Notes: a model not told the origin generated them from the sequence alone. 62,540 nucleotides of DNA, filler included, from Bonamia ostreae (GCA_040357525.1; 13 parts of 13 records of this genome joined end to end with filler, not necessarily neighbours in it); one strand, 5' to 3'. Numbered from the whole stretch's first letter, positions 397-62,540 are shown. Numbers and translations: made by a program.

Positions 397-945
397 ATTG
401 CAAAGACAAAAATAACGGCTTCAAAATTGATTTTTAAAACATCCCATTTTAACGTCACGGACATTGACAAACTCAAAATATTAAACGTAAAATTAATTTT
501 AAGCTCAATTTTTTAGAAAGAGCTTTTTCCAGTTTCGTATTCCGACAAATTTTACAAAGCCATTTTAGAAGAAAAGTACATTATGATTTTGGTTTATTTG
601 AAAGGCGACGACGCGGAATTGATAGGAACCGCGACAGCTCGTGTCGAAAATGGCAGAATCGGTTATATTGCGACCATCGGCGTCAACTCAAAATACCGGA
701 AAAGAGGAATTGGCCAAAATCTGCTTAAAATTTTGGAAGAAGACTTGGTCCTTGTACACAAAGTCGAGAAAATTTATTTGCACGTGCACATTGAAAATGA
801 CGGAGCACTTTATTTTTACAAAAAAAGGGGGTACCGAATAACAAAGCGTATTCCAAATCTGTACAAATTTGTTAACAGGGATGAAAGACAGGACGCATTT
901 GAACTGGAGAAAAAGACTGTGACGCGGAATTGCGAATTATTATAA
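397..945 (+). CDS. GNAT N-terminal acetyltransferase (NAA50/NAA60-like); one 30-nt intron at 487-516; start codon uncertain (ATT at 397)
   Basis: Spliced product reads DIDKLKILN|KELFPVSYSDKFYK...YIATIGVNSKYRKRGIG...YLHVHIENDGALYFYKKRGY. It has the acetyl-CoA motif RxxGIG plus the NAA50-type FPVSY and YLHV motifs. Confidence 0.8.
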
Positions 946-1138
946 ATTTTTTTACAAATGATATTTTAACAATTTTTACTGTCTTCGATCACAACTTTGT
1001 TTTAATGGATTAAATCCAAAACATCCAATTTTTGAAAAATGGCGTTGTCCGTTTTAAATAGATTCAGAAATGTAAAATGGCGAGATCAAAATGGCGAGAT
1101 TAAAATGCAAAATTCAGCAATAATATTGTTAAATAACA

Positions 1139-1538
1139 ATGTCCCTCGTCCATCGTTTACAAAAGAGAAAGTTGAAAGAGAACAAATAGCAAATTAGATT
1201 TTCAATGCAACAACGAAGACTCAAATCTTGAAATCGTTCAGAACTATTCAAAAATGCTCTGATTGAAACAAGCAAACAGTTCTGCCATTACTACGTCAAC
1301 AGATTTGCACAGAATTACAAGATGAAAAAATCGATGAAAATTTTCTCGAAGATATAAAAACAATCGATGTAGTAAAACATTTTATATTTGAGAATTTTTG
1401 TACCTTTCAATCAAACTAGACTGCCCCGTCTGTAAAAATGGCAACATTGTTGAATGCAGGAGATGTGAAGAAATCAGAAAATACTTATTTTCTTTAGACA
1501 CAGAGGAAAAACAACGTAAAAAAACGATTTTAAGATGA
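1139..1538 (+). CDS. Small hypothetical protein with C-terminal CPVC...CxxC motif (putative zinc-binding); about 3 introns
   Basis: A reading frame can be joined with GT-AG introns, and the last exon encodes CPVCKNGNIVECRRCEE. No family was recognised with confidence. Confidence 0.35.
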
Positions 1539-1683
1539 AAACTTGGTATTAAAATCGTTTTGAGATTAATGCTGAAAAATAGTTTGAAAAATATATAAAA
1601 ACGACTTATTTCAGATTAAAGGATATTTTTGCAAAAGAGCCGAAGAACCGTTCGGGAGGAATATTTAAAAAAAAATGGTCTTT

Positions 1684-4402
1684 ATGTTCCTATTTCTGGT
1701 TTTCGCTTTGTCCATTTTCCAAACGAACACAGTGTTTTTTGATGGAATAGAAATTACTCGCATTTCAGAAAAACATTTTGGTTTCAATAAAATTAATTAA
1801 AAAATAAGTTTTCAATATCGGTTTCATAAATTTCAATTTCTAAAAATAAAGATGGCGTTTCTCGTTTTTTTGTTTTAAATAGAATATGTAATATGTACAT
1901 GTAAAAATCATTATTGCCAGTTAATATTCGACAAATAAAATTTTAAAAATGGTCCACATTTTGTTTGAAAATAAAGAACATTTGATATCGAGAAGAAATT
2001 GCAAAATATACAATTTTATAAATGAGATAACATGTCTTAGAAATGCCAATTTTGGAGAAATAGATGATTTTATCAAAAGCTATGTGGATTCAAGAAGATT
2101 CGAAATAGACGATCTTAACAATTTGGAACATCGAGAAAACGAAGTTGATGGGGACAATACAATCGATGATATTGAAATTGTCGATGAGAAAGGTCATTAT
2201 TCATTTGACATCAATATTATTATAAAAATTTTCAATATTGATCTTAAAAAATAGAAAAATCAAGATTAAACCACGCGAGAGAATATTTAAGAAGAATAAA
2301 CGGCGCAGTGATATATCCAAATAATGATGATGGAGAAAGGGACATCGATGTCAGATATTCTAATGACAAAGATGTGGAAAATAATAGGAGCGATACTGAA
2401 CACCAAATTGGGGAAGATGAGAACGGCGATGATTTAGAAATGCAAAACAGCAATGCGAATACTCATAATTTTAGAGACTATATTATGAATTTTCTTCGAG
2501 AAAAGAAAATTGAGTCTAGAAAAAATATTGAAACGATGAGCAACGTCGTTTCAATAATAATAAAATTTATTTTAAATAAAATTTGGCTAAGAAATTTAAT
2601 TTTAATCAAAGACATCTCAAATAGAAGAAAACACAAACAATAATGAAAATAACTCTGATGTAAGGATCAACAGCATCTACAGCGAAATACCTTCTTCATA
2701 TAATAGAATACAAAAAATGAGACTTGGAAATAATGAAAATGTAGCTTTGGATGTAGAAAACGATACAGAAAACTTTTATAAAGAAAATGATGAAAGAAAT
2801 ATTGCAGACAAAAATGTTGCAACAAATAGTTTGAAAAGGGGATTTATTAATGATGAAGTTGGTGGAGAATCAGATGGAGATGTGTTGGGAGAAATACAGA
2901 AAGGGTCATATGTTGATGCTGTTGAAGTTTCTTATGAAAACGGAAATGTTTACATTGATGAAGAACATGATAACAATAAATTAAAAAATTCCATCGCTGA
3001 ATCAAATGTTATCGATGAATTGCCAGTCTCAATGAACGAAGTGCAAGATAAGATTGATGGAAAAATTATCCAAAGTAGTTCAAAAGAAGTTGATGAAGGA
3101 CCATTATCAGTTAGCGAACGGAGTGACAACAATATAACAGACATTGACGACTCTGAATCAAATGTTATCGATGAATTACCTGTTTCAATGAACGAAGTGC
3201 AAGATAAGATTGATGGAGAAATTACTCAAAGTAGTGCAAAAGAAGTTGATAAAGTACCATTATCAGTTAGCGAACGGAGTGACAACAATATAACAGACAT
3301 TGACGACTCTNNNNNNNNNNNNNNNNNNNNNNNNNNNNNNNNNNNNNNNNNNNNNNNNNNNNNNNNNNNNNNNNNNNNNNNNNNNNNNNNNNNNNNNNNN
3401 NNNNNNNNNNTGTTATCGATGAATTACCTGTTTCAATGAACGAAGTGCAAGATAAGATTGATGGAAAAATTATCCAAAGTAGTTCAAAAGAAGTTGATGA
3501 AGGACCATTATCAGTTAGCGAACGGAGTGACAACAATATAACAGACATTGACGACTCTGAATCAAATGTTATCGATGAATTACCTGTTTCAATGAACGAA
3601 GTGCAAGATAAGATTGATGGAGAAATTATCCAAAGTAGTTCAAAAGAAGTTGATGAAGGACCATTGTCTTTTAACGAAGTACAAGATGATGTTGAATTTA
3701 ATAACGATGTGGCGAATGTTAGTAATGATTTGCCATTTTCAAGATACGTTGCACAAAATAGAATTAAAAAAGGAATCGTCGGCATTATTGGAGTACAAGA
3801 TAAAAACGAAGTACAAGTTAATGACTTTGAGGCAAATAATATTGATGAAGTACCTGTTTCAATAAATAAAGACGTGAAAACAGATGGAAAATATAATGGT
3901 AATAGTCCTTTAAGTACTTCAAATCAAAAAAATAATATTGATCCAAACAAAATTTATGAAAACAAACAAGAAAAGATGAACAACAATGGAAATTTTGATA
4001 CGAACAATGAAACTGAAATTATTAACAGTGAGAATATTGATACAAAAAACTCTGTTTTCGTTATAACAATTTGAAATTATAACAACCTTATTAAAATTTT
4101 TAATTACATGTTTGTACAAAGAATTTGGAGCCCTTGCAATTAAGCAATCTTGATTATACGAATGTTGTTGAAAATGAAGATGATTTTATAAATTCTTTGA
4201 ATGGATATGTCGGTGAAGGTTTTATATTTTTATGTGCATATTCAATTTTATTTTTATTTAAATAGCGTACTCAAAAGCTATTTTTGAGCCAAAAAACGAA
4301 GTTGAAATCAATGAAGTTGAGAGTTTGAGTATTCTTGAAGATTCGATAGCTGTTTTTGTTAATATGGATTACGCCATTTTCATCGTTTTGGCAATGTGTT
4401 GA
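1684..4402 (+). CDS. Acidic, Asn/Asp-rich putative surface or secreted protein with 52-aa tandem repeats; multi-exon
   Basis: N-terminus MFLFLVFALSIFQT looks like a signal peptide. ORFs at 1949-4074 are consecutive exons. The C-terminus is hydrophobic (IAVFVNMDYAIFIVLAMC*), resembling a GPI signal or TM tail. Exon joins are inferred. Confidence 0.55.
2997..3680 (+). repeat. Coding tandem repeat, 156-bp (52-aa) unit, spanning a scaffold gap
   Basis: ATCAAATGTTATCGATGAATT recurs at 3001 and 3157. The unit encodes ESNVIDELPVSMNEVQDKIDG...DNNITDIDDS. Confidence 0.9.
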
Positions 4403-8380: not shown

Positions 8381-8912
8381 CCTTTTTGAAAATTTCCGAT
8401 CGATTCTTATTTCTGCTTTTGATGAAGCTTGATTCTACTTCTTTACATTTATTCTTTTTTCGTAAAAATTCGGTTGATCCTTTTTTTAGAAAATCGCTTC
8501 TATTCAAATTTTCCAACTTTTTAATTTAGATTTTTGGATTTTGATTATTTTCAGACCGCTGAAGATTATATGAATTTAGTCGTAATTTTCAAATAACGGG
8601 TTCAAAATAGAATTAATATAAAAAATCTTCAAAATTATGGAAGGACAAAAAACTTAACAAATGTTAAAATGCTAAAACGACATATTTTCGCAAAGGATGA
8701 AATTGAAAATTTTGAGATTTGATTAAATCTTTATTGACTAAAAATAAAGAATCATCGTTTGAAATTTTTATTAAAGTTTTATATTCCATGATGTCAAGCC
8801 ACTGTACATTAATAAAAAATTACATCTAAAGCTAATTTTCAATATAAAAAATTTATATGCAGTAGAAGTAATATTAAACAAAAAGTAAAAAGCTAAGTTA
8901 TAATAAAACGAG

Positions 8913-9335
8913 ATGTCCAAAAGAGCGAAAAAAGGAGCACAAGGAAATAAACTTAAAACTTCAAACGGCCTACCCGTCGGAGCACTTATTAATTGCGCCG
9001 ACAATTCAGGCGCTAAAAATCTTTGCATCATTGGAGTACTCGGCCGTTCCGGAAGAATGAATCGGCTCAATAGCGCATCCGTCGGAGACTTAGTCGTTTG
9101 CACAGTCAAGAAAGGAGTGCCCAAGCTTCGGAAGAAAGTGTTCCGCGCCGTCGTTACAAGACAAAGAAAAATGTTCCGTCGCGAAAACGGCGGATTTGTT
9201 TGCTTTGAAGACAACGCCGGTGTGCTCCTTAACACTGAAAAAACGATGCTTGGATCCGTTATTAATGGCCCGGTCGCCAAAGAAGCCGCTGACTTGTGGC
9301 CTAAAATCGCAAGCGCCGCAAGTTCTATCATGTAA
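8913..9335 (+). CDS. RPL23: 60S ribosomal protein L23 (uL14), intronless
   Basis: [26 protein letters not shown] and [16 protein letters not shown] are strongly conserved. Confidence 0.98.
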
Positions 9336-9367: not shown

Positions 9368-9626
9368 TTTGCGATCTACATATTCCATTTTAAAACGGAT
9401 TCGCAATAATTTAACGTTTTTGTTACAAAACAGCGATTGCGATCTACATATTCCATTTAAAACGGATTCGCAATAATTAAACGTCTTTGTTACAAAACAG
9501 CGATTGCGATCTACATATTCCATTTTAAAACGGATTCGCAACAATTAAACGTCTTTGTTACAAAACAGCGATTGCGATCTACATATTCCATTTTAAAACG
9601 GATTCGCAATAATTTAACGTTTTTGT
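9368..9626. repeat. Tandem repeat, ~68-bp unit, about 4 copies, running to the contig end
   Basis: GCGATCTACATATTCCATTT recurs at 9371, 9439, 9506 and 9574. Confidence 0.9.
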
Positions 9627-14628: not shown

Positions 14629-16788
14629 TTTTTGAAAACGAAGAAGGCGGCAAACAAAACACTTTGTTTGAATGGCTAAATCGCTGTTCAACGCCATTCG
14701 GTCATCGATTATTGAAAGAATGGGTAGCCAGACCATTATGCAATATACAGAATATCAACAAACGTCTTGACGCCATTGAGAATCTTATGGAGTTGCCAGA
14801 ATTAGCTGAACAAATTTCAAAGAAATTAAATCTTTTAACGGACATTGAAAAAATGATTATCCGAATTAGAGCTTATTCGCTGCAAAAAAGAAAAATTGTT
14901 TTTTATGAAAACATCGATTTGAAATATCTACGAATATTCGTGCAAATTATAAATTCACTCAAAATTTGTTGTGAAATAATCTATTTGTTCAAAAGAATTA
15001 AAAACAAAATATTTTCAAAAAAGTTGATTGAACTAGTTTTTGACTTGTTTCCAAAAGAATGTGAAGGTCTTCGACTATATAACAATTTATATTCGACAAT
15101 ATAACAATTATTCGCAAATTAAAAATTTAGTAAAAAAATCGACAAAATTTAACAATTATCAAAATCAAAAAAAATAGAAAAATTGAGAATAAGCGAGAAA
15201 ATAGATATAGAAGAAAGTGAAGAAAAACAAAAAATAGTTCCAAAAGGCCAAATTAGCGAAAAATTTGAAAACATTAAAGAGGAAATGAATTTGATAAAAT
15301 CTAAACTTGAACAACATTTAAATAAATACAAAAAAATTTTTAACGATCCGTCAATCTGGTTTGCCATTTTTGCTCATTTTCGCTCAATTTTTTTGTTCAA
15401 ATTTTTAAAAAATACAAAAATTTTTAACGATTTTTTAATTTAAAGCTTTTTTGAAGGATTTATATCAAATTACCAAATCGAAATGAAATCAGAAACAGCT
15501 AATCAAAAACTATCAGAAGACTTAATAGAAGTTTCAAGAACATCAAAAAAACGACGATTTACAACAAACGAAATAAAAAGTTTGGTCGAAGAGTTAGAAA
15601 TCCTGCAAGAGAAAAAGAACGAATATTTGGAAAGTTATCTAAAAACCGTTTTGGCAGAATTCTGTGATCATTCTAAAATGTGGTCAGCCGCTATAAAAAG
15701 CATTGCCGAGTTGGATTGCATTCTAGCGCTTTATAACGTTTCAGCTTTTTCGACTGGATCGATGGTTCGCCCCTTCATTGTTAAAAACCAAGAGAAACCT
15801 TTTCTGGAGTTGAAACAATCTTGGCATCCTCAGATCAGCTTTTCGGAGTTTTTTATTATATGATATTTTCTTAATCGATATTTTTGTTTTTATTGCAAAA
15901 AATGGGACAACAATCCCATAAATTTTTTTTATCTAACTAGTAGTTATTTTTTGTGACTTAAATTTTTTGAACGATATTTAATAAAGACAGACAACGAGCA
16001 CAACGGGATTTGTGCCAAATGACATCTTTATCGGAGATGGTGCAGACACGAAAGCGATGATAATCGTTACAGGTCCAAACATGGGCGGGAAATCTACTTT
16101 GTTGAGACAAACTTGTATTGCTGTTATTTTAGCCCAATTGGGTTGCTTTGTACCCGCCAAATCAGCTAAACTGTCTTTGACGGTCTATTTAAAATTTTTG
16201 TCTTTTTTGGCCAATCGATTTAATGCGAAATTGAAAATTTTAACAAATTTTAAAGGATCGGATATTTACAAGAATTGGCGCAAACGACGCGATTTTGGCG
16301 AACAAAAGCACTTTTTTCGTGGAATTGGAAGAAACGTCAAATATTCTAAATAACGCAACTGAAAATTCTCTTGTTATCCTTGACGAGCTCGGAAGAGGCA
16401 CTTCCACTTTTGACGGTGCTGCGATCGCATTTGCAGTCTGCGAACATTTGTCTAAAATTGTAAATTTTCAAATTCTAAAAATGAAAAATTTTTAAATAAT
16501 TTACAAAATCAAATTAGACAAAATGTCGAACGTTGTTTTCGACGCATTACCATTTGTTATCAAAATACTATCGAAAGTCGAATTTTGTTTCGCAATGGAA
16601 TATGGCTTTTGAAGCGATTGGAAGCAAATTGATATTCCTTTACAAATTTCAAAAAGTTTAAATTTAACTAAAAGGGAATCTGTGAAAATTCGCATGGCAT
16701 TAATTGTGCGAGAATGGCTGGGATCGATCGCAAAATTATTGACAGAGCGGAAAAATTGAAAAATGATTATAGAAATTTGCTCGATTAA
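14629..16788 (+). CDS. MSH6: DNA mismatch repair protein MSH6 (5'-partial)
   Basis: [66 protein letters not shown] and FSTHYH. Confidence 0.9.
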
Positions 16789-19700: not shown

Positions 19701-19723
19701 ATAAAAACGAAGAACAAGTAAAA

Positions 19724-24385: not shown

Positions 24386-24639
24386 TCAGTTTATCATATC
24401 AACAACTTCTATGGCGAGAATGCTGTTGCCCCTAACAGCGATTGTGCCTAGTTGGCGTCTATCGTTATTAGTGACAAAGTGAACGGCGTCACTTAACACA
24501 ACGTTCATAAATTGGTCGAAACCCCGCATATTCCCTCTGATTTGGATTTTTCCTCTGAGCTTCAAATCGAGGATTTTGTCCATGTAACTTTGATTAAATC
24601 ATTAAACTGCTTTAGTTCAGGTCCAGCTGATTTTCCCAT
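24386..24639 (-). CDS. SNRPG: Small nuclear ribonucleoprotein SmG; one 20-nt intron at 24588-24607
   Basis: MGKSAGPELKH|YMDKIL...RGFDQFMNVV...VRGNSI. Confidence 0.95.
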
Positions 24640-24874: not shown

Positions 24875-27165
24875 ATGGTAATGTTTTGATAACTTTAAGA
24901 AAATTAAGTCATTAAACAGTGCAAGGCATGTTCCCAAAACAAAGGGCTTTATTGATTTTATTACGGCCGACGGCAAAAACATCATTAGTAACAGACTGAA
25001 CGTCTGTTTTAAAATCAAAAACAACACAATTTGGGCCAAAGTTTTAAAATTCATCCAAAAGAATATTCGTCTTTTGATGAAAACAGACCATGGCCCCATT
25101 TATAGGTGCTTTGTAATAGGCAGCACAAACAGCAAAATCCCCGTTATCCCAAACGGCGCCGAAGGAATCCTTACATCTAAAGAAGCCCTACCAAATCTGA
25201 AGACACACCATTTCGGGTTGTTTTTAGATGGATTTCTCAACCCCCATTCTAAAATGGGAAAAATCGATTTTAAGCAGCTTTCCAAACTATCGGAAAACGA
25301 ACCCTTTTCCGAAGAGCACAGCCAAATCGGCGATGTCGAAACAAACTCAGAAAACACCAAAATCGGCGGAGAGGACAAAAATACCGACAAAACAAGAAAC
25401 TTCGCTGAAGACAAAAACCGGACATTTGCGGCAATTCCTAAAACTACAAATCCCGATAAATTGATAAATAAAAACATTTTAAGTTCTAAAAATTTGGACG
25501 AAAACAGCGCTACTGAAAAAAGCAGCGAAGTTCAATTAGAAACGGGGATAAAAGCAATTGACTTGTTTGCACCAATAACGAATTCGAGTGACGTAGCGAC
25601 TGTTTTTTGTGACAATGGTTTGGCGAATTCTGTTTTGAAATGGATTGCTTTCAACGTGTCCAAAACTTGCAACAGTTTTACAAAAACATTTTAGAATTTG
25701 TGTCGATATATTCCGGCGATTACGGAAAAGCCCAAAAAGATTATAAGGACTTTGTGAAAATGGGAGTTTTTAACGACTTTGCTCAAAACAAAAGCGCCGG
25801 CGAAATTTCTAAATCGCAAAAAGTTGAATTTCCAAATTTGAAGAATTTGGAATTTGGGTTCCGTTCGGTTATGTTTAGCAACTCTGCGATGGATTTGCCG
25901 GGAATCAAAGTTGCCACAGCCAATCAATCTCTAAAAACAGCTTTTAAAGCGGCGACAAATTTAAAGAGCGGTGCGCTTTTTCTGTATCTGTTTAGGAATT
26001 CTGTTATCGACGTTTTTTAGCTTGATTTTTGATTTAAATTGGATAATTTTTAGGCCTACAATTTGATGAACATGTCCAAATATGGCAAATTTGATCCGCT
26101 CAGCAAACTTAACGAATACAATTGGGTCAAAACTGATTTGGAGACTAAAGATATTTACCAGAAACTTCGATATGATGTGTTTAATTTTTCTATTTACAAA
26201 TATTTTTATTCTACAAAAATTTGTCTTTATTAAAATATTTGTCGTTATTTAAGAAATTTTTAATCTTCAAAAATTTGTCTTTATTAAAATATTTGTCGTT
26301 ATTTGCAAAGATTTTTATTCTACAAAGATTATTTGTCTTTATTAAAATATTTGTCGTTATTTACAAAGATTTTTAATCTACAAAAATTTGTCTTTATTAA
26401 AATATTTGTCGTTATTTGCAAAGATTTTTATTCTTCAAAAATTTGTCTTTATTAACAAAAATTTATTTTTATCAAAAATTTTCATTGTACAAAAATTCGT
26501 CTTTATTAACAAAAATTTTTCATTGTACAAAAATAGCCATTTTTATTAACAAACAACAAATTTTGAAATCAAAAAATTTGCGGATAAAAACAAAAAGTCT
26601 AAATATCCGGAATTCTATGAAAACTTTACCAAAACAGAAAATTTGCTCACAATAAGTTCCTTAGAACTACCGAGCGATGTTTTGGATGGTTTGTTGATAT
26701 CGCCAAGCGCTATATTATCCAAACAAGACGCCGTGATAACTTTCAAGAAATGCAGAACCGCGCTAAATACGGAAATAACTGTTCCGATTGATCCGATTAG
26801 AACAACGAGCAAATTTTTGTTCGAACAAAATATTTTGAAAGTTAAAACTTTTCCGAAAACTAAAATGGCAAATGTTAATAAATCAAACAAAGAAACACAG
26901 AAAGACAAGTTTGATGGTGAGAAGACAATACATCGATCGAGAATCTTTTTATCTGAAGAAAAAGTTTCTGCTAAAGAATAGCAATTTCGAGATGAACCAT
27001 ATCGCTTCTAAACGACTAAAGATTCTGGACGCTTATCTGTTTACACAAAAAAGGCATTCGTTCGTACCGATTCGAAACACGATTGCGGACTGTTCCAATA
27101 TTTTAGAAGGAAAATATGACAGGGCGCAAATCAAAGATTTTATTAATATTGGAGAAATCGTTTAA
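24875..27165 (+). CDS. Highly divergent F1-ATPase beta-subunit homologue lacking catalytic motifs
   Basis: Colinear beta-like motifs LETGIKAIDLFAP, PIDPIRTTSK, LSEE and FVPIRNTIADCSNILEGKYD. Walker A, GER and Walker B are replaced. About 6 introns. Confidence 0.75.
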
Positions 27166-27464: not shown

Positions 27465-28299
27465 TTAGCTTTTTATATGGAAATATTTGACGTGCTGCTT
27501 CAACGCATTCTGGTCCATAAACATTCTCCCGCAGCCTTCGCTCGAACAAGCCAAAAGTTCGCCCGTGTGGATTTGCTATTTTTATTTTCAAAACTTGAAT
27601 GTGCTTCCTGAGATTGTAGTTCAACCCGAAGTCTCTGCGACACGACGGATAAGGACATTGGAAAGGCTTTTCTTTCGTGTGGACCATCATGTGCCGCTTC
27701 AACTTTGACGCTTCCGAAAACGCTTTCGGGCAGCCTTTCACTTGACAAGCGTGTTTCTTCTCGCCGTGAATGCGCTTGTGCTTCTTCAGCGAATTGAAGT
27801 CGCCGTAGACTTTTTTGCAGACGTCGCAGATGTGCTCCGTCTTCCCTTTGTTCTTGTCGCCCGCGGCCCTCCGACTCGGCTTCTTCCGCGGGACCCAGCC
27901 CGGCGGCAGAAGACGCGAGCCCAAAGGACCTTTGACCAGCTCGCGGAGGGGCACTTCCTTCGCCGCCTTCTTCGGGTCTTTGTTCCTTCTTCTGGCTTCG
28001 CATCGACGACGAGCCGATCGGAAGAAGGAAAACGCCGTTCCCTTCGAATCGGCTTCGTTCCTGCTGGAAATGGCTTCGTCCAAGTCGGAATCCGAATTCG
28101 AAAAATCGTTGTCCGCTCTGACCCAAGTCAGCGCGCTGAAGCTGGACTCGATCGTTTTGATCGGGATCCAGCGCCGGCGCCAGAGCGAATTCGCGTCTTT
28201 GCCTTTTTTGAAGGTCGTTCTTTTTCGAAGTTCGCGGCGAATCCTCTCTGTTTTGACTTCGTAAGTGTCTGCTCTCGAAGGCAATAGTTGTTCGCTCAT
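27465..28299 (-). CDS. YY1: YY1-like C2H2 zinc-finger transcription factor (four fingers; one 19-nt intron)
   Basis: KKHKRIHGEKKHAC...CPKAFSEASKLKRHMMVHTKEKPFQC...FGLNYNLRKHI follows the YY1 finger array. The N-terminal WxxxWIP...WV motif resembles plant YY1. Confidence 0.7.
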
Positions 28300-28461
28300 T
28301 CGTTGAACTTTTATGTGCGAAGCGTTAATGGACGGAAATGTTTATTTTATAAGTTTTGTCTGTTAATGGACAATATTTTTGTAAAATATTTTTTCGAACA
28401 AGTTTTTAAAATTTTTAATTTTCGAAGCGGCGCGTTGGGCTAAATTACAAAAATTAGGAAA

Positions 28462-33974: not shown

Positions 33975-34755
33975 CTAAAACTTACAGCAATTCTTTTTGT
34001 TATCATTCGTCGTCATTGCAATTCCTTTCGTCTTCTCTAAATTTTAAAATTTGTTCAAAACCGTTTTCCTTTCCTTTCTAAAATTTGTTAAACTTAAAAA
34101 ACGTTGTCAAACTTATCTTTTATTCTCATTACAATTGTTTGGATCGCTTCATTAACGTTGTGGTCGTTTTTCGCGCTTGTTTCGAAAAACGGAATATTGA
34201 ATTCTTTGGCCAACTTTTTGCCCTCTTCGACGCTCACTTTCTTTTTTTAATTTTCAGTCGAAACTCTTTTGTCCTCCATATCCGTTTTGTTGCCGATGAG
34301 GACTGTCACAACATCGTCAGTCGCATATTGATTGATGCTTTTGATCCAATCTTTGAGACTATCAAACGTTTTCAAATCGGTTATATCGTAAATCAACAAT
34401 ATCCCGTGAGCGCCTCTATAATAAGCTGGAAAATTGCAGAAAAAATATAAAAAGAAAATTTGCCAAAGTCGGCTAAAATTTACCGGTTGTAATAGTTTTG
34501 AAGCGTTCCTGTCCGGCCGTATCCTAAATTTTAAAAATTTACCCAAATTTGGAGCTTGATCGTGGAATTGTCGATTTTGATCATTTTGATTTTGAAATCT
34601 ATCCCGATCGTTGATACAAATGACGTTTTAAAATTTTTGTCGACATAGCGCATCAAAATAGAGCTTTTGCCGACGCCCGAATTTCCGATGGTTAACAGTT
34701 TAAATAAATAATCGAAAGTGTCACTTTTATGCAAAATTAGAAACCTTGTGCTCAT
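33975..34755 (-). CDS. Rab GTPase, Rab8/Sec4-like
   Basis: [46 protein letters not shown] and a C-terminal CCKF prenylation motif. Confidence 0.9.
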
Positions 34756-36470: not shown

Positions 36471-37174
36471 TTAAAGCTTTATTAATGTCAAATTTATGCG
36501 ACTTTACGTTAAAATTAGATTTAGGTGATTTGAATATTTCTTAAAAAATAAAATTTTTAAAATCTTTAAATTCTAATCTGAGTTCACTTTTAAATCCAGA
36601 TAACTCTTCATCGTACAAAAATAAAATTATTTTTAAGATAATGATAAAATAATTTTTAAAATAATAAAAAAGTAATTTTTAAAATAATAAAAAAAGTAAT
36701 TTTTAAAAAAGTAATTTTTCAAATATAACAAGATCCAAAACGGATGATAAATTGAAAAAAATTTATTTACGACAATTCGACTTTTCCCAAAAAATTTTTT
36801 GTGAAAAGAAGCCTTCCCGAATATTGAAGACGAAGCGCAGAATTTCGATTAAATTTGATTACAAATTCGATTAAATTAAGATTTATTTATCTGTATAAAC
36901 AAGATAGACATTTTACAAAATTAAATTTTTAAAGGGTTAAATTTGATCGACCGCATTAAAAACAATCGATTATAAAATTAAATTGCGGAGCAATTAATAA
37001 TCCGCAATATGATTTCTTGAAAATGGCAGCCAATCAAACCATCCAACCCAAAAACACAAAAACCCAAAAAAACAAAACACAAAAGCTTTAACAAGAGATT
37101 AGACAACCGAAAACTAAAACATTACGAAAAAAGACTAGAACCAAACCCTAATTTTGCTAAATTTAAATTGTCCA

Positions 37175-38381
37175 ATGACCAACAATCGCATTTTCATCGG
37201 AAACATTAGCAGCAGAACGACAAAAAAGGATTTGTTCAACAATTTTGAAGAATTTGGAGAAATCCTTCGTTGCGACTTGAAAGACAAGTTCGCCTTCATC
37301 GATTACGACTCGTCCAAAAACTGCCAAGACGCAATCGACCGAATGCACCGAACCGACCTCCTCGGCCGACAAGTTCCATTTTGCCATTATAAAATTTTCC
37401 GACATTTCGGACTCTAAAATTTTTTATGCACTAAAGCTAAATCCTAATGTCCTATTTTAGATAATAGTCGAAATGAGCCACGGCAACAAACAGAGATCCG
37501 ATGGCTTCCGCGGCGGCTACAGAGACGAATATCGTCGAAACGATCACGACGACAGAAGAGACAGAGACCGCCATCACGACGACAGAAGAAGTAGACATTA
37601 CGACGACAGAAGAGACAGAGACCGCCATTACGACGACAGAAGGAGCCGCCATTACGACGACCGGAGAGACAGAGACCGCCATTACGACGACAGAAGAGAG
37701 AGAAGCCGCCATTACGACGACCGGAGAGAGCGCCACTACGACAGAAAAAGTCATTACGAAAGCGACAGCCGCAACTTCAAAGTCAAGACTTCAAATCTCA
37801 CTTCGCGCGTGAGTTGGCAAGACCTCAAAGATTTCGCGAGAGACAACATTGGCCCGTCCGTCGCGAGGACGAATGTTTGGTCCACGAGGAGCGGCAATTT
37901 TGGCGTAATCGAGTTGACGGATCGCGGCGATTACGACTACGCGTTGAAGCAATTGCAGAACAAAGAAATCGACGGCCAAAAAGTCGAGTTCTCGGAATTC
38001 ACCAGGGAAGACGAGGATGAACGCAGAAATGAAGGAGATCGGCATCCGAGAAGAGGAATTTCGCGATCTGCGAGAATGTCGGAATCAAAAAGTTCCGGGC
38101 GGTCCAGGAGTCGGTCGGAGAGTTCGAAGAGGTCCAATGACCGATCGGATAGAAGAAGTTTTCCGAGTGAAGCGGAAGAAAAGTCGGAAGATAATAAGAG
38201 CGGAAATGAAAATGATAATAGCGAAAATGAAAATAACGACAAAAATAAAAATGGCCAAATTGAAAATAACGACCAAATTGAAAATGGCGAAAAAAAGAAC
38301 GAAAATGGAGAAAAAAGAAGTCGTTCAAAAAGTGAAGAAAATGAAAATGTCAAAAAGTTGAAGGAATCTAATGAAGAATAA
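37175..38381 (+). CDS. SR splicing factor with RRM plus SWQDLKD pseudo-RRM (SRSF4/5/6-like)
   Basis: RIFIGNI...FAFIDY RRM, a HYDDRRDRDR-repeat linker, VSWQDLKDFAR and an RS-rich tail. Confidence 0.88.
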
Positions 38382-44193: not shown

Positions 44194-47100
44194 ATGAAAA
44201 ACTCCAAAGAAAGACCGAAAAGAAACAAAAATAAAAACAAAATCGCTTCTTTGGAAAAAATTAAGCGCATCAGAGAAGGCGACGCTTCTGTCTTCGAGGA
44301 AATGGACAGTAACTCAAACGACTTGTTCGTTCATGTAACTGAAAAAGAATTTAAAGATTTGGCAGAAGAAAAAAATGAATTTATCGTTGGAAGTTTTTAA
44401 TTACAAAATAGCCTATGGCAGTGATGATGAAGAAGACTTCGGCGCAATTAATAAACCTGAGATGATTCCAAACGCAGTAAAAAGAAAAGCAAATCCATTC
44501 AAATACAATAAAAACAGAACAAAATTAGATAACGACCCCAATTTCTTTAAAAGATCTTCAAGTGAAAAAAAAATTGCGCGAAAAGTTTAAAAATAACAAT
44601 TCAAAAAGGTGACAAAGAAAATAATAGTTCCTCTGGATTTGTCAGTCCTCAATCAAATTGACGGCAAAGTCGAAAATTCTGAAACCGAACGATTCGAGAA
44701 AAAAATTTTCATGCCCGAAATAAAGAGCGGCCAAATAAAAGAGATCGATAATCATTTTGAAGAAATTGCGAAAAAGTTTCCCCAAGATAAAAATAATCTC
44801 AACACCAATTCTAACCAGAACGTTGTTAAATCAGACAATTTGAATGAATTTAAATCGGAAAAACACGATGAAACGAAAATAAACGAGTTTCCAAAAACAG
44901 ATAACTCTGTAAGCTTTGTAAAAACTCACGCGAGTTTTGAGGAAAATAAAATTGAAGAACAAGAATGTTCGGACGAAAACATCAGAGAAAACGAAATAAA
45001 AAATGATCCTGTTCAAAATACGCTCAAAAAACTAGAAAACTTAAAAGATTGTTTGATAATGTACTGGATTGACGCGTTTGAAGACTTCTATACGCGGCCG
45101 GGGACGATATTTTTATTCGGAAAAGTTTTGTAATGAAATTTAGACTATCGACGGGAAAAGTTGCTGTTTGCAAGTGAGAAAAGTGCCGAAGAATGTTTTT
45201 GTACCGGTGAACGAAGACAACAAAAGACAGAAATTGCTTTTTGTGCAAGGGTTAGCAAAAAAGGCAAAACTTCCAAATTTCAAAACCAAACTTGTGAAAA
45301 GAAAAAGTTGTTTCGGAAACAATGTCGAAAAATCAGATAAAAATAATAACAAAATAAAGTCCGAAAAAACTGATGAAAACGAAGAAAAGGATTTTATAAA
45401 ATGCACGTATGAATACACAAGTTTTAGATTTTTAGAGAATCCCGTAATTTACAATATAAATTCTGTTGCAAAAATATGATTCAAAAAGATAAAAATGATC
45501 CGTTTAGAAACGAAGCGATCGGAGCGAACACGAAGCCACTTGAAACATTTATACTGAAAACAAAACTCAAAGGCCCTTGCTGGATCGCAATTCAAAAGCC
45601 ATCCGCCATTAAAACTAAAGTTCGGCCATTTTAAATTTATTTGCCAATATATTACAAATTTGTTTTCGTTAATAAAGATCTCGTGGTGTAAAAGCGAAGT
45701 GACCATCGATTCGCTCAAGAATATGAGAATATTAAATAACTCTGACTTGTTAGAGTCGAACGAGTCGAATCTTCTTGAAAAAGCGAATTGGAACAAAAAT
45801 CTACAGCCGCCTTTGACAGTTCTAGCGCTATCAATGAACACGATAACGACCAAGGACGCAGCTTCTTCTGAAATTGCGTCGATCAGTTGTGTGCTTGTGC
45901 CCGAAATGGATTTTGAAAAAAATTTTGAGAATGGAAGACTCTCCAAATCGATCAGCGCGTTTTGTTGTGTGCGTCCTTTGAAAGACAAAGCTCTTCCGCC
46001 CGGATTGGCAAAGCGCGCAGCTGAACAAGGGAGAGCGTTGAGAATTTGTTCGAGCGAACGTGAGATGCTCGGATTCTTCCTAGCAAAACTTTTGTCAACC
46101 GATCCTGACGTCGTAGTGGCGCACAACTTGTACAAGCACCATTTGCCGCTGCTACTCGCGCGCATGAAGGCCTTAAAAGTGATAAATTGGTCGCGTTTGA
46201 CTAGATTGAGAAGAAGCAGGTAATGTTTTGAGATTTGAAGAATGCCCTTCCCTCGTCCGATGGAAAGAGGTCTGCCGAGCGGTCGGTTGTACGTAGACAC
46301 GTGGGCCAGCGCGATTGAATTCTCCTTCGAGAAAACGTACTCGTTGTCGCATTTGGCCAAAAAATATTTCGGAATGGACACTTATTCCATATGTTATTCA
46401 ATATATGAATTATTTTAATTTTTCTGATTCGATTTTTAGATAATATTTGGAATTTTTTTACGATTTTTAATTTTTTGATTCGATTTAAATCAGTTTTTAA
46501 TTTATTGGTTTGATTTTAATTATTTGCAAACTTTTTGATTTTTTATTAAACAACTGCAAGAAAAAACTTTACAAAAAACCAATTTCAAAGCACCAACTGA
46601 AATGAAAAGCAAAATGGCTTCAGAGGTAGGCATTTTTGAGGCGATCGGAAGCGGCTGCAATGAAGCATTTCTGACCATACGAGTAATGTCGCATCTGTCT
46701 GTTCTGCCATTAACAAAGCAACTAACACAACTTTGCGGAAACCTCTGGTGCTCATTATTAACAATATTTTCTAAAAAGGTCAGGATCGCTCCAGTCGAAA
46801 CGTGCGGAGCGGAACGACTTTCTGTTGCTACACGAATTCCATCGAAGAAAGCACATTTGCCCCGAAAAAAGAAAGAGCAACAATTCCTATTCATATAATA
46901 AAAAGAAAGCCCGATACAGCGGCGGACTTGTATTAGAACCGCAAAAGGGACTCTACGACAAGTTTTAAAAGAGAATGAAAAGGTTGGTGTTGTTGCTAGA
47001 CTACGCGAGTTTGTACCCTTCGATAATAATTGAACACGACATTTGCTTCACGACGATTTCACAAAGAGATTGCGACGCTGGAGACGAACTTGGCATAAAA

Positions 47101-47710
47101 GAAAATAGTTCTGCCAAAAAGGGAGTTCTTCCGGAGATAGTTAAGAAGCTGCTTGAAAGAAGAGGAAACGTCAAAAAATTGATGAACGTTTTATAAATAT
47201 ATCTTCAAAAAAGAAAACAGTGTCGGAGAGAGAAAGGGGATCGTTGGACATTCGCCAAAAAGCACTGAAACTAGTTGCGAACTCGATCTACGGCTGTTTG
47301 GGATTCGAAAGATCTCGCTTTTATTGCAAAGAAATGGCGTCTCTGATAACGTTGCTCGGGCGAAAAAGCTTGTTAGCGGCCAAAAACGCCGCTGAAGATG
47401 TGCAGTTAGAACCACCTCCAAGAGTAATTTACGGCGATACGGATTCGATAATGGTCGCGACGGGTCTGCTAAATTTGGCAAGAGCCAAAAGAGCAGCGAT
47501 GGAAATAATTAAAGCCGTGAACAAACGCCATATGTTCATGCGAATCGAACTAGATGGCATTTTTCGCAACATCATCTTGCTGCAAAAGAAAAAATACGCG
47601 GCGAAAATGGTGGTTGGAGAAAAAAAGGGCAAAATTGAAACCAAACTGGAGCTAAAAGGAATTGATTTGGTGCGAAGAGAATGGTGCAATTTTTCAAAGA
47701 AACTTGGGAG
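44194..47710 (+). CDS. POLA1: DNA polymerase alpha catalytic subunit (3'-partial)
   Basis: MYWIDAFE...LFGK, KGPCW, DPDVVVAHN, YSGGLVLEPQKGLYD, DYASLYPSII, KLVANSIYGCLG, YGDTDS, KKKYAA and KGIDLVRREW. Confidence 0.96.
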
Positions 47711-47949
47711 GTTTGTGGGATTGTTATTCTTTTTAATAATTGTCAAAATTTTCGTTTCGGAAAAAATATTGTTTTCCGAAACTTGTAATAAAAATATTTT
47801 TGTTTAGTAAAATATTGGAATATATTTAAAAAGTCAAATAATTTAATTTCGAAAAATCAATTAGGTTTTATGCCGAATAAATCCACTAAGGAAAACCTAA
47901 TTTAAATTTTACTAATAAAAAATTTAAATTCATTTTTCAAAGGCCTATA

Positions 47950-48050
47950 ACTTCGAATATATTTTTAGTATTTCGAGATTTAACAAAGGCCTATGGCACA
48001 GTAGATAGGCCTCTGTTTATTAAAATAATTGAAAGAATTGGCATTAAAAC
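47950..48050 (+). mobile_element. Degenerate non-LTR (LINE-type) reverse-transcriptase remnant
   Basis: Translates IFLVFRDLTKAYGTVDRPLFIKIIERIGI, similar to the non-LTR RT motif FxDxxKAFDxV...L...G. No long ORF; lies near a contig end. Confidence 0.55.
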
Positions 48051-48517
48051 AGTAAAAAGACTGTTCCTGTCAAATGGTCCTCCGACTAATGGCAGACAAG
48101 AGGAGTTTAACGGGAACTGCGCCCCGTGCAATAGGGCTCGATATGATTCCATCCTCGTGATAGGCTCTGGTTGATCATGCCACTCTAAAGACAACATGAA
48201 TTATATTACTGCAGTNNNNNNNNNNNNNNNNNNNNNNNNNNNNNNNNNNNNNNNNNNNNTTAATTAATTAANNNNNNNNNNNNNNNNNNNNNNNNNNNNN
48301 NNNNNNNNNNNNNNNATATCTTCGAAAAATTGTCATTTAAACAATGAAATGGAAAACATTAAAAACATGCAAATTTTAATAAACAACATTTCATTAAAAC
48401 AAGTTAATTGTTATTGCAATTTTATTAGCACTGAGATTTATATTTTATGCAAATAAAGCTGCACTTCTAATTAATAAGAATGAGTTGGAACCAAAAAATT
48501 AAAAATAATATTTACAG

Positions 48518-52609: not shown

Positions 52610-53005
52610 TTTATCGCAATTTTAAATTTTTTGTGATTTTCAATTTTATTATTTTTTGCAATTTTTTTTGAGATTTGCAATTTTGTTATTTTTTTCAATT
52701 TTAATATTTTTTGAGATTTGCAATTTTATTATTTTTTCAATTTTAATATTTTTTGAGATTTGCAATTTTATTATTTTTCGCAATTTAAAAATTTTAATTC
52801 GATTTGCAATTTTATTATTTTTCGCAATTTAAAAATTTTAATTCGATTTGCAATTTTATTATTTTTTGCAATTTTATTATTTTTTGCAATTTAAAAATTT
52901 TAATTCTATTTGCAATTTTATTATTTTTTGCAATTTTAATATTTTAATTCGATTTGCAATTTTATTATTTTTTCAATTTTAATATTTTTTGAGATTTGCA
53001 ATTTT
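52610..53005. repeat. AT-rich degenerate tandem repeat (intronic) running to the contig end
   Basis: GATTTGCAATTTTATTATTTTTT recurs at about 40-bp spacing. Confidence 0.8.
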
Positions 53006-53515: not shown

Positions 53516-54764
53516 ATGGAATTGCCATGGCTTGAAAAATATCGACCGAAAAATTTGAATCAAATTGTTGGAAACGATTTAGTTATCGATCGCCTTAAGT
53601 CCATTGCGGAAACCGGTAACATGACAAACCTCCTTCTCAGCGGTCCGCCCGGCATTGGCAAAACGACCACAATAATATGCCTCGCCAAAAAGCTGCTCGG
53701 TAGCGACTATAAAAAAGCAGTTTTGGAATTGAATGCGTCTGACGAACGGGGGATCGACGTCGTCCGAAACAAAGTGAAGAATTTTGCGAAAACTAAAGTC
53801 GGATTGCCAAAAGGGCGCCACAAATTAATCATTTTAGACGAAGCAGACAATATCACTTCGAGTGCCCAGAACGCTTTAAGACGAACAATGGAAGTCTGAA
53901 ATTTTCACAAAATATTTTAATTTAAAAATTTTTAAATTTTACAAATTTATTTCGCTTTTAAAGCTCTATTCGGATACGACAAGATTTATATTGTCTTGCA
54001 ATTTTTCGACAAAGATAATCGAAGCGATTCAAAGTTGAAATTTCTAAAAATAGGTCGCTGCGCTGTTTTGAGGTTCAGTAAATTGAACGAAAAGGACGTT
54101 CTTAAAAGAATGCTCAAAATTTTGGAATTTGAAAAGGTTCGATATTTTTAAAATTTGTCTTCGAAAATGAATCAAACTTTTCAAAGTCTAATATTTTTCG
54201 AAAATGAATAATTTTTCGACCGATTTATCAAATCTTTACCATTCGCTAAACTTTGATAAAGATAAATAGCTATGACGAAAATGGATTAGAAGCCATTTTG
54301 TTTATAGCAGACGGCGATCTTAGAAACGCGATCAATAGCATGCAAGCTACACATACAACTTTTGAAAGCATCACAGAACAAAACGTCTACAAAGTTGCAA
54401 AATCCAAAATTTAGGTTTGTGACGTTCCGCACCCGTTCATTTTGGACCAAATAATCAATTTGTGTTCCAAAAATGACGTCGCGTCCGCTTTGGATAGGAT
54501 GAACGGTAATTCTTGAAAATTTGAAGCTCTGATATCGAAGGGATACTTGGCTAGTGACATTGTGACATCGTTGTTTCGATCTGCCAAAAATTCAAATTCG
54601 CTGAAAATTAGCCAGCAATTGAAGTTTATACAAGTTTTTGATTAAATGTCGAGATAATTGGTTCGTCGCATTTGCGGATTTTGGAAGGGAACTGTTCGCG
54701 CTTGCAACTAAATGGCTTGGTCGCATCGCTTTGTCGATACGACGAAAACGATAAATTTGACTGA
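53516..54764 (+). CDS. RFC2: Replication factor C small subunit (human RFC2 / yeast Rfc4); 6 introns
   Basis: [52 protein letters not shown] and VCDVPHP. Confidence 0.95.
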
Positions 54765-58899: not shown

Positions 58900-59139
58900 G
58901 TCAACTGTATAGTCTGAATTGAGTTAAAGCCCAGTGGGCTTCTTGCAAATCGAGCTAATATTAATGTGCCGCGGAGACTCTCAGCTTTTTCTTGGAACGT
59001 CGGTTAAACTTCATCCGCTCCAGAGAAAAAGTGTTTTCTGTTGCCACCGTTCAGACAATCAATGTCTGTCCCTTTCGGAAATGTCGGCTACCTCAGACCT
59101 TCCCCAGTGCATTTGCACCGAATTGCAACACAGAAGACC
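58900..59139 (-). ncRNA. Nuclear RNase P RNA (~240 nt)
   Basis: Minus strand has CR-I GGGAAGGUCUGAG (about 59104-59092) and CR-V CUCAAUUCAGACUA (about 58923-58910), which form P4. P1 is CUGUGU/AUACAG. TATA at 59161-59169 and a U6 terminator at 58891-58896. Confidence 0.92.
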
Positions 59140-60458: not shown

Positions 60459-60527
60459 ATTTTATTTTTATGCGCAATTTACCATTTTTGTGCAAACTTA
60501 GTAGCCATAAATTTATTTCACTCGGAC

Positions 60528-61673
60528 TTACAAACCCTTGTTGAAATAAAGAGTTTCGACTGGCGAGCCATCACTGAGCTTTAATCCCTTAAAGCAATCC
60601 TCAAGTTCACTTATCTTCGCAGACCCGATTTGCGGGAAGAGGCCAATAGATACCGGAAGAGAGATAAAGGTCGTTGCTGTTATCAAAGCGATGTTGAAGG
60701 GCATCGCCATTCTAGGCATGTTTTTGAACACTAGTTTTCGTTCCATTATCTTAAGTTATTAAGACATTAAAAATTATATTCGCAACAAAATCCGAAAGAG
60801 CTAATTAATGGATGTCAATGGCAACCGATTTGACTAGCGCGGGGAAGAGGATTGTAGGGATCGGGAATATTGCTCTCGACAAAGACACTTGTCGAAGAGC
60901 CTTGTGGGCCGCTTTTTTAGACGACCCGACGACCTCCCCGTCTTTGTTCTTTAGTTCGATTCCTTTGACGGTTTCGTTGTACCGCATGAGGAGAACGTTT
61001 GACACACTCGCCGCGGCGACCGACAGAAAGGGGACTGTTGCCCTCGCTGCTATTCCGGCAATGGGCGAGATTTTCGAGGCGGGCTTGACTAGTTTGCTTA
61101 TCGATACGCTCATTCCGCAACTCACTGTAAGCGCCATCAGATAAGCGGACGCGATTTTCTGCGGCGACATCGGATTTGTTTTGTTGCCGTTGCTGTGGTT
61201 TATTGCCACGTTGTAAGACTGATTGTACCACTGCCAAAACAACTGCGCTTGAATCGTCTTCGCGGAAATCATTCCGAGGATGATCGGGATATTCATCGGC
61301 ACGAAAGCTGCAAACCGGCACGGAAGAGGTATTTTCTCTTTTGTCTGAGGGTGCAAAATCGAATCTTAAATTTTGCATATTTTTATGATCGCGTTGAAGC
61401 GGCGGAAATAGACGAAATTTTTGTCAAAACCAGTTATCTTCTTTGCCTCCCACAATTCGCGATTAACCGCGTCGCTTAATTTCTTTATTTTGCCTGTTTT
61501 ATATTCCTCCAACAAACTGACCGCTCGCTTCAACTTCTTATCAGACGTCATCAACAGCATCGGATTGAAAATCTCGGATATAAAAGTCAAACCTCGAAGA
61601 AATGCCGGACGCGGCCGGCTAAAGTAGACTGATCATATTTATTTTTTTCTAGATTAAATTCTTCGTCTGACAT
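60528..61673 (-). CDS. SFXN: Sideroflexin (mitochondrial inner-membrane carrier)
   Basis: KYDQSTLAGRVRHF, HPQTKEKIPLPCRFAAFVPMN, FWQWYNQSYN, GLFPQ and YFNKGL*. Confidence 0.96.
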
Positions 61674-61802
61674 GAAAACGTATTAGCAAATATTTATTAA
61701 AACCGGTTAGGTTTTGATGGTTTATTTTGAGTGCTATTTAACTCATTTGCTCAAATTATCAACAAAAGTTTGCTCAATTTTAGAAAATTTTTTCTTTAAT
61801 GG

Positions 61803-62060
61803 TTAAAAACGTCTATATAAAAACGACAAATCAAAATCGTTATCGACTAAAAATAATGGATTAAATCCAAAAACGACAAATCTTCGAAAACGAAGGTTAA
61901 AATCGTTATCGACTAAAAATAATGGATTAAATCCAAAAACGACAAATCTTCGAAAACGAAGGTTAAAATCGTTATCGACTAAAAATAATGGATTAAATCC
62001 GAAAACGACAAATCTTCGAAAACGAAGGTTAAAATCGTTATCGACTAAAAATAGCGACAA
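61803..62060. repeat. 63-bp tandem repeat, about 4 copies, intergenic
   Basis: AAAATCGTTATCGACTAAAAAT recurs every 63 bp. The ORF at 61803-62060 is a by-product. Confidence 0.9.
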
Positions 62061-62076
62061 GTAGCCATAAATTTAA

Positions 62077-62540
62077 TCAGGCCGCTTTAGCGTAGCTCAC
62101 GTTCATCAAATGTTTTTCAGTAATGGGGTAGTCTTGCAACTGAGAGAGGGCCACCCCCGCGTGAAAGGAGGTATGGAAGTCGACGAAAGCAATACCCGGT
62201 TTTGACTCGATCATACGCACTTGGCGAAATCCTTGATATCTTATCGATTTTTATTTGAAGATTTAAGAAAAATGCAGTTATGAAACTTCAATCAATTTTG
62301 AAGATTTTTATTTTGAAAAAAAAATTTAAAAAAACTTTCCAAAAAGTGAAATCAGCGTCTGTGCGTTAATTTCTTTCGGCAGATTTTGCAAGAAAAGGAC
62401 GTTGTTTGGTGATTCCGAAACAGCAGGAGCACTGTCCGTCTTTCTTTGGATTTCTCTCTTTTCGGCCAATTTAGATTTTTTGCCTGTTATTATATCCGAA
62501 TCAACTTTGGCGTACGCGACTTTCTTCAAATTAACAAAAT
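62077..62540 (-). CDS. U1A/U2B'' (SNF) spliceosomal protein, C-terminal RRM (5'-partial)
   Basis: YAKVDSDII, PNNVLFLQNLP, GFRQVRM...GIAFVDF and VSYAK. Confidence 0.88.

Follow-up and report, generated by a model that had tools for sequence, protein, structure and literature searches.

Miniature GT-AG introns with GTT-rich donors in nuclear genes of the oyster parasite Bonamia ostreae

Conserved proteins encoded in the 62,540-nt stretch of DNA analysed here (the window) are interrupted by very short segments that begin with GT and end with AG. The question raised by this locus is whether these segments are introns and, if so, what in so little sequence marks their ends. A first-pass annotation of the same DNA had proposed tiny GT-AG introns with GTT-type donors throughout the genome. 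Two NCBI Bonamia ostreae proteins, P0121 (the catalytic subunit of DNA polymerase alpha, 576 aa) and P0241 (msh6 partial, 485 aa), are 100% identical to translations of the window. This identity shows the window to be nuclear DNA of Bonamia ostreae, a parasite of oysters (Haplosporida, Ascetosporea, Rhizaria). The window is AT-rich (27-35% G+C per 5 kb) and dense in eukaryotic housekeeping genes, which are split into short open frames. Our intron survey covers nine genes in this one window, and any genome-wide statement is an extrapolation from them. The nuclear genes of B. ostreae very probably carry ordinary GT-AG spliceosomal introns that have been miniaturised and have a shifted donor, for which a mechanism is proposed below.

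Segments missing from RNA and introns placed by homology

The window stretch is present in public sequencing runs, one of which is labelled as a mollusc metagenome. Contigs of four public runs were placed on positions 24260-28984, a 4.7-kb stretch free of Ns. Two of the runs (X1 and X2) are DNA and a third (X4) was taken to be RNA from a guessed label. X4 behaves like RNA, with zero depth in 3 of 30 bins lying outside or between exons (28368-28525; intron bin 26314-26471) and depths of about 1 to more than 16,000 in the remaining bins. Seven segments of 19, 20, 21, 22, 42, 52 and 421 nt are missing from the X4 contigs and are all carried ungapped by X1 and X2. GT..AG ends were found in 7/7 of these segments, each with a single GT..AG placement (Table 1). 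The longest is inflated by a minisatellite that makes up most of it (tandem repeat at 26191-26509, period 55, 5.8 copies). The fourth run (X7) supplied 4 contigs, of which 0 cross an intron. At 27275-27356, 82 nt are replaced by 33 other letters in the contigs of X1, X2 and X4 alike, and this is a strain or allele difference, not splicing.

The tiny GT-AG introns are thus real, and the five examples named in the first-pass annotation (one each in Rab, SmG and POLA1 and two in RFC) also proved to be bounded by GT and AG at the positions given. None of these five rests on RNA, all having been placed by homology or by reading; the SmG intron has no RNA bridge because 24260-24575 is uncovered by X4 contigs.

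Homology was brought in with a spliced protein-to-DNA aligner that uses BLOSUM62 scoring and demands only GT..AG ends, with 12 full-length POLA1 homologues and 20 RFC homologues as queries. Twelve recurrent introns were found in POLA1, one of which (donor 45421) has an ambiguous acceptor, and six were found in RFC. The POLA1 example, a purine-rich intron at 46962-46982, was chosen with every query, and the Pfam DNA_pol_B pieces on its two sides stop and resume at profile position 58; around the intron at 47188-47213 the pieces abut at profile positions 139/140. Both RFC examples (54034-54053 and 54634-54653) were recovered as well. Five POLA1 junctions are already spliced in the public gene model P0121. 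This deposited model looks truncated by comparison with homologues, since it begins at 45723 and differs on its 3′ side, whereas the alignments of homologues extend from about 44182 to 48171 (+) and include 12 introns. The homology in the window spans about 1,100-1,300 homologue residues, against 576 aa in P0121. Four further junctions, in an MSH6-like gene, come from P0241, of which 482/482 aligned residues are identical when mapped back onto the window. The sole match returned by a search with the MSH protein was the window's own protein.

In the Rab, sideroflexin and SmG genes introns were placed by reading. Removal of the Rab example (34524-34542) rejoins ..KLQIW to DTAGQERF..; its donor is GTAAAT and not of the GTT type. 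Removal of the SmG example (24588-24607) joins a short ATG exon to a downstream open frame (24389-24598) that has no ATG of its own and matches positions 4-65 of the LSM profile (E 7e-19). A further 21-nt segment of the Rab gene (34724-34744, minus strand, GTTTCT..AAAAG), after codon 4, is a possible intron; its length is a multiple of three and it holds no in-frame stop, so the sequence cannot decide the matter and it was left uncounted. Altogether, 36 introns were compiled from RNA contigs, spliced alignment, reading with continuity of Pfam pieces, and the public model.

As a control, the end dinucleotides demanded by the aligner were swapped for 14 decoy pairs, using 3 RFC and 3 POLA1 homologues. 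GT-AG was best in 3/3 RFC homologues, but TT-AA outscored it in 3/3 POLA1 homologues, with GT-AG above the other 13 pairs. The TT-AA decoy has about four times more candidate pairs, and its ends fall one base inside those of GTTT..AAAG. Two other scans discriminated poorly. A naive scan for GT..AG pairs joining open frames found no excess over decoy dinucleotides, and is uninformative because every dinucleotide pair close to a true junction is accepted. Gene finding ab initio, based on codon scores alone with a flat length prior, was weak too, with decoy pairs giving equal intron totals. Here only the 19-23 nt bin stood out, with 13 introns for GT-AG against 1-7 for nine decoys.

Intron length, splice-site composition and the first AG

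Intron lengths stop abruptly at a lower limit of about 19 nt, peak sharply at 19-21 nt (14 of the 36) and trail off to a few hundred nucleotides. The proposed mode of about 19-23 nt stands insofar as 15 introns fall within it, and 20 are no longer than 26 nt; the distribution has, however, a long tail, 16 of the 36 measuring 31-421 nt. The only intron shorter than 19 nt is the POLA1 intron with the ambiguous acceptor, which was left out of those statistics given below for 35 introns. Intron density is about one per 55-100 codons.

Donors are mostly of the GTT type, as proposed (GTT 26, GTA 5, GTC 3 and GTG 2 among the 36), and GTAAGT is found in none. T occupies position +3 in 72% of introns and A in 14%; G stands at +5 in 5/36. 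Against a background of 360 unused sense-strand exonic GT sites, GTT is enriched at donors (25/35 versus 43%, p 6e-4), and GTTT more so (18/35, or 19/36 with the ambiguous intron, versus 15%, p 7e-7). GTTT enrichment is accordingly the stronger donor signal, and GTT donors contrast more with those of other eukaryotes, which have a purine at +3, than with the local background. The signal is degenerate: 23 types of donor hexamer occur among 35 introns, GTTTTA being the commonest (5/35) and GTTTTA, GTTTTT and GTTTTG together accounting for 12/35. The last exon base is A in 17 cases and G in 14. From these sites the 5′ splice-site consensus appears to have drifted from G|GURAGU to (A)|GUUUU(A/G). 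Two GTA-type introns in different genes, at 24878-24899 (+) and 46220-46240 (+), have identical first 12 bases, including an internal GTTTTGA, which could reflect chance, a common signal or a common origin.

The 3′ splice site reads AAAG or UAG, and the A/U-rich sequence around it has no pyrimidine tract. The AAG and GAG acceptors noticed earlier are indeed present (AAG 23, TAG 9, GAG 3 and CAG 1 of 36), with AAAG in 17/35. The expectation of no polypyrimidine tract was likewise borne out, the last 10 nt before the AG being 48% A and 34-37% T and the 3′ part 46% pyrimidine. Only the 58-nt Rab intron (34426-34483) has a T-rich 3′ part. Amongst the 15 introns of 19-22 nt, A is found at -9, -8 and -7 in 10, 11 and 9 respectively, and no motif stands out. 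The introns of 31-421 nt use the same types of donor and acceptor (GTT 10/16, AAG 13/16).

Two regularities go beyond the earlier annotation and are new in this analysis. Firstly, 30 of 36 introns use as acceptor the earliest AG that places its G 19 nt or more from the G of the donor, and AGs inside introns that end 6-15 nt from the donor are passed over. Secondly, AG is depleted beyond that distance. Past nucleotide 19, the interiors of the 15 introns of 24-87 nt add up to 430 positions, at which a single AG occurs, compared with 13.0 in within-intron shuffles. No shuffle was as low (0/5000), and the antisense strand of the same interiors gives 15. The suggestion that splice-site choice is length-defined therefore holds in part: there is a distance component, but choice is not purely by length, as the same signals are found at 31-421 nt. 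When genes were sought across the window by pairing each donor with the first acceptor at least 19 nt away, GT-AG came top of 21 dinucleotide pairs (2359 versus 1885-2227). As a gene finder this procedure was poor, recovering 16/36 compiled introns exactly and predicting 87 others. The 87 were excluded from all counts because so few of the known introns had been recovered exactly.

Table 1. Introns compiled in the window, and two RNA-related genes. Positions are those of the window; X1 and X2 are DNA runs and X4 is the RNA-like run.
Feature	Length (nt)	Position	Strand	Ends	Basis and remarks
Intron, unnamed gene, right behind ATG	22	24878..24899	+	GTAATG..AAG	X4 skips at depth 488/488, X1/X2 keep
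Intron	21	25041..25061	+	GTTTTA..AAG	missing in X4 contig, kept in X1/X2
Intron	20	25675..25694	+	GTTTTA..TAG	missing in X4, kept in X1/X2; ab initio prediction agrees
Intron	42	26012..26053	+	GTTTTT..TAG	X4 skips, DNA runs keep
Intron	421	26177..26597	+	GTGTTT..AAG	X4 skips, DNA runs keep
Intron	52	26841..26892	+	GTTAAA..AAG	X4 skips, DNA runs keep
Intron, C2H2 zinc-finger gene	19	27576..27594	-	GTTTTG..TAG	X4 skips at depth 7510/7510, X1/X2 keep
Intron, POLA1	19	44393..44411	+	GTTTTT..TAG	5/12 alignments; moderate support
Intron, POLA1	24	44585..44608	+	GTTTAA..AAG	7/12 alignments
Intron, POLA1	19	45125..45143	+	GTTTTG..TAG	9/12 alignments
Intron, POLA1, ambiguous acceptor	17	45421..45437, or end 45488 / 45515	+	GTTTTA (donor)	donor 9/12 alignments; acceptors split 5, 3, 1
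Intron, POLA1	58	45620..45677	+	GTTCGG..AAG	11/12 alignments
Intron, POLA1	21	46220..46240	+	GTAATG..AAG	12/12 alignments; P0121 junction
Intron, POLA1	198	46393..46590	+	GTTATT..AAG	11/12 alignments; P0121 junction
Intron, POLA1	31	46748..46778	+	GTGCTC..AAG	11/12 alignments; P0121 junction
Intron, POLA1	21	46962..46982	+	GTTTTA..AAG	12/12 alignments; P0121 junction
Intron, POLA1	26	47188..47213	+	GTTTTA..AAG	12/12 alignments; P0121 junction
Intron, POLA1	32	47802..47833	+	GTTTAG..AAG	5/12 alignments; moderate support; public model differs
Intron, POLA1	26	47865..47890	+	GTTTTA..AAG	7/12 alignments
Intron, RFC	70	53894..53963	+	GTCTGA..AAG	19/20 alignments
Intron, RFC	20	54034..54053	+	GTTGAA..TAG	19/20 alignments
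Intron, RFC	125	54137..54261	+	GTTCGA..AAG	16/20 alignments
Intron, RFC	21	54394..54414	+	GTTGCA..TAG	12/20 alignments
Intron, RFC	21	54506..54526	+	GTAATT..AAG	9/20 alignments
Intron, RFC	20	54634..54653	+	GTTTTT..GAG	9/20 alignments, 3 more with same acceptor
Intron, Rab	19	34524..34542	-	GTAAAT..TAG	reading
Intron, Rab	58	34426..34483	-	GTAAAT..CAG	reading, ..KTITT and AYYRGAHG.. rejoined; Pfam Ras pieces agree
Intron, Rab, 3n with in-frame TAA	24	34241..34264	-	GTTTCG..AAG	reading; flanked by Pfam Ras 66-123 / 119-161
Intron, sideroflexin	20	61573..61592	-	GTTTGA..GAG	reading, frame change after ..RHFFE
Intron, sideroflexin	66	61365..61430	-	GTTTTG..AAG	reading; Pfam SFXNs pieces end 66, resume 67
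Intron, sideroflexin	76	60750..60825	-	GTTGCC..AAG	reading; Pfam SFXNs pieces end 244, resume 246
Intron, SmG (LSM fold)	20	24588..24607	-	GTTTAA..AAAG	reading, short ATG exon and LSM open frame
Intron, MSH6-like	111	15067..15177	+	GTCTTC..TAG	P0241 junction
Intron, MSH6-like	87	15359..15445	+	GTTTGC..AAG	P0241 junction
Intron, MSH6-like	139	15848..15986	+	GTTTTT..AAG	P0241 junction
Intron, MSH6-like	73	16183..16255	+	GTCTAT..AAG	P0241 junction; flanked by Pfam MutS_V 1-41 / 41-112
SR-protein gene, two RRMs, SRSF1-like		37139..38378	+		Pfam RRM_1 twice; SR proteins are the closest solved structures
Nuclear RNase P RNA gene		58903-59124	-		Rfam RF00009, 63.7 bits, full model; just downstream of PIG-M gene

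Possible modes of recognition

Removal from RNA with GT..AG termini, as in major (U2-type) introns, is seen in all seven segments missing from X4. The complementarity of major donors to canonical U1 through GURAGU is lacking, with GTR in 7/36 and no GTAAGT. U12-type introns have an extended conserved donor with an ATATCC core and AT-AC or GT-AG ends, and nothing similar to this core occurs among the 23 donor hexamer types. Nor are the lengths confined to a fixed band of 1-4 nt as in ultra-short systems, given the 16 longer introns.

The mechanism that we propose keeps ordinary two-step splicing. Introns would have shortened until steric limits halted them at about 19 nt, and the 5′ site would be read with little or no canonical U1 pairing, since barely more than GU could pair with canonical U1 there. 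The 5′ end of U1 may have altered, as it has in Entamoeba, or U1 may play a minor role whilst U6, U5 and Prp8 do the work. In the tiny introns the branch adenosine would lie in the A-rich stretch about 7-9 nt upstream of the acceptor. In the second step, the earliest AG past a minimal steric distance would be chosen, and AG would have been purged from intron interiors because of this. Tentatively, one can go further and imagine a spliceosome that works like a ruler. It would accept a GUUU donor through a co-evolved U1 or with none and take as acceptor whichever AG comes first at 19 nt or beyond, with selection acting against interior AG and perhaps no U2AF65-type recognition; miniaturisation in Ascetosporea would then predate the 16-17 nt introns of mikrocytids. 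This fuller scheme is a possibility to which we give limited credence.

A number of points weigh against the view of miniaturised introns with a shifted donor and a distance-set acceptor. RNA support covers 7 introns within 4.7 kb and depends on contigs assembled from a single run that is RNA by a guessed label, and contigs cannot show splicing efficiency. As the aligner accepts GT-AG ends only, it would miss non-GT-AG introns, and the GT-AG ends of all 36 introns are partly built into the procedure. Fewer than 60% of the alignments back five POLA1 and two RFC junctions, and the four MSH6 junctions are based on the public model alone. GTT makes up 47.5% of all GT sites in window DNA, so that the enrichment of T at +3 is only moderate. 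The branch-A signal is weak (n=15, with multiple positions not corrected for). Lastly, the first-AG rule is broken by six long introns (76-421 nt) that skip internal AGs, and therefore more than distance acts there.

It is also conceivable, if unlikely, that U1 snRNA has been lost or become dispensable in Bonamia, the 5′ site being set by U6, U5 and Prp8 and by how far away the first usable AG lies. The scarcity of the purine at +3 that pairs with canonical U1 (only 7/36 donors) and the 30 introns that obey the first-AG rule both speak for this. The window is silent on U1 either way, and a search with Rfam (E up to 1) found no snRNA gene in it. SR proteins usually work with U1, and such a protein is retained, which argues against the loss of U1. 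The SR-protein gene is SRSF1-like, and 30/54-nt coding tandem repeats at 37546-37742 (+) presumably encode its arginine-rich tail. The first-pass annotation had listed SmG, an SR protein and U1A/U2B″ as retained splicing factors. The LSM profile match and the SRSF1-like RRM gene uphold the first two. The third fell away, as no U1A/U2B″ gene was found among the 292 open frames scanned with Pfam (142 of at least 90 aa and 150 of the 431 of 45-89 aa), and the RRM gene at 37139-38378 is the SRSF1-like one. Moreover, the loss of splicing genes has been placed on the branch of paramyxids and mikrocytids, not in Haplosporida, in the relevant passages of the genome paper (PMC11069148).

Two intron classes, a minority with G|GUAA.. 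donors recognised by canonical U1 and a majority with A|GUUU.. donors recognised by a variant U1 or without U1, seem quite unlikely. An exon G precedes 5/5 GTA donors but only 6/25 GTT donors (Fisher p 0.003), which would fit two classes, as would the two GTA introns that share their first 12 bases. There are, however, only 5 GTA introns, and both kinds stand side by side in POLA1, RFC and the gene at 24875, with equal lengths and acceptors. One degenerate consensus with compensating pairing to the exon fits the same data.

Finally, that the short segments are assembly or strain indels, or developmentally eliminated DNA of the ciliate kind, can be set aside as extremely improbable: strain differences do occur here, as the replacement at 27275-27356 in DNA and RNA-like runs demonstrates, but the window and both DNA runs contain all seven RNA-missing segments, each with GT..AG ends, no DNA reads without the segments were seen, removal restores conserved proteins, and five junctions are spliced in public gene models.

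The wider window and comparison with known systems

Pfam matches among the open frames scanned were to GNAT, INO80 DBINO, NSUN5, uL14, MutS, TBC, C2H2, uS12, RCC1, Rab, RRM, DNA polymerase B, Utp14, RFC, PIG-M and sideroflexin. A ciliate with a changed genetic code was considered as the source and is ruled out by long Pfam domains that are open under the standard code. The uL14 (RPL23) gene at 8907-9332 (+) has no intron in its open frame and is unusually divergent, with a best identity of 58-68% to other proteins among the matches listed. This divergence and the run labelled mollusc metagenome had pointed to a dicyemid or myxozoan, a reading given up in view of the 100% matches to NCBI-named Bonamia proteins, with which both observations are also compatible. 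Several intergenic spaces contain minisatellites with units of 36-106 nt (9369-9626, 17312-17564, 19428-19706, 52637-52991 and 61833-62053), and DNA contigs of X1 and X2 pile up or break at minisatellites. A 15-mer found at 60500-60514 and 62060-62074 (-) flanks the sideroflexin gene on both sides; two matches compare with 0.37 expected, and 7/100 shuffles also reach two.

In the literature, the passages seen of the B. ostreae genome paper speak of 'canonical introns', on average 2 per mRNA, and give no intron lengths or logos, and the word intron is absent from four text supplements (PMC11069148). The B. ostreae transcriptome paper makes no mention of introns (PMC9329632), and a 2026 paper states, with no more detail, that Ascetosporea have drastically fewer and smaller introns (PMC13746701). 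A search that left most subscription journals outside found no paper in which short introns are connected with Bonamia or haplosporidians. As far as we found, tiny GTT introns are thus present in public gene models and undescribed in print. There is a practical side to this: Bonamia genes will be broken up by gene finders that keep a default minimum intron size or expect GTRAGT donors. The public POLA1 model, as noted, looks truncated.

Lineages with tiny introns show the minimal sequence that a spliceosome needs. To these Bonamia would add an intron-dense case with degenerate signals, namely non-purine +3 and +4 positions, A-rich acceptors, no pyrimidine tract and the first-AG rule. Introns of chlorarachniophyte nucleomorphs are 18-21 nt long (cited in PMC10245619), and the modal length in Bonamia is the same. 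A nucleomorph is, however, a relic endosymbiont nucleus with a narrow range of intron sizes, whereas the introns described here lie in the nucleus of the parasite itself and extend into a long tail. In heterotrich ciliates, Stentor among them, introns measure 15-16 nt (cited in PMC10245619, PMC13644364). Bonamia resembles them in having tiny introns at high density, but has a floor of 19 nt and a tail in place of a fixed length. In myxobolid myxozoans and Dicyema median introns are 22-27 bp and the 5′ signal is reduced to 'GTa' (PMC13644364). Those are animals; Bonamia is a rhizarian protist, and its +3 position is mostly T, with A in a minority.

The closest parallel for the donor is found in Entamoeba, in which GUUUGU donors occur in 88-90% of introns, introns are few, and a co-evolved U1 (AACAAAC) reads ACAAAC (bioRxiv 10.1101/2022.06.08.495308). 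Bonamia likewise has U at +3 and +4 (GTT 26/36, GTTT 19/36), and a changed U1 5′ end is therefore a concrete expectation for it. Unlike Entamoeba, it has no near-invariant hexamer, its commonest (GTTTTA) reaching 5/35, with G at +5 in 5/36 and 10/36 donors that are not GTT. The mikrocytids, in turn, are neighbours of Bonamia. In Mikrocytos mackini and Paramikrocytos canceri all introns are 16 or 17 nt long (224 in 179 genes) with highly conserved sequence, and of the snRNAs only U2, U4 and U6 have been identified (PMC10245619). Both they and Bonamia are Ascetosporea with AT-rich, reduced genomes and introns near the lower length limit (PMC10245619). Bonamia differs in its mode of 19-21 nt, its tail to 421 nt, its density of one intron per 55-100 codons and its degenerate signals. 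With neighbours whose introns are 16-17 nt long and whose spliceosome is reduced, the co-evolution of U1 and donor and a stepwise shrinkage of introns within Ascetosporea are therefore testable on public data.

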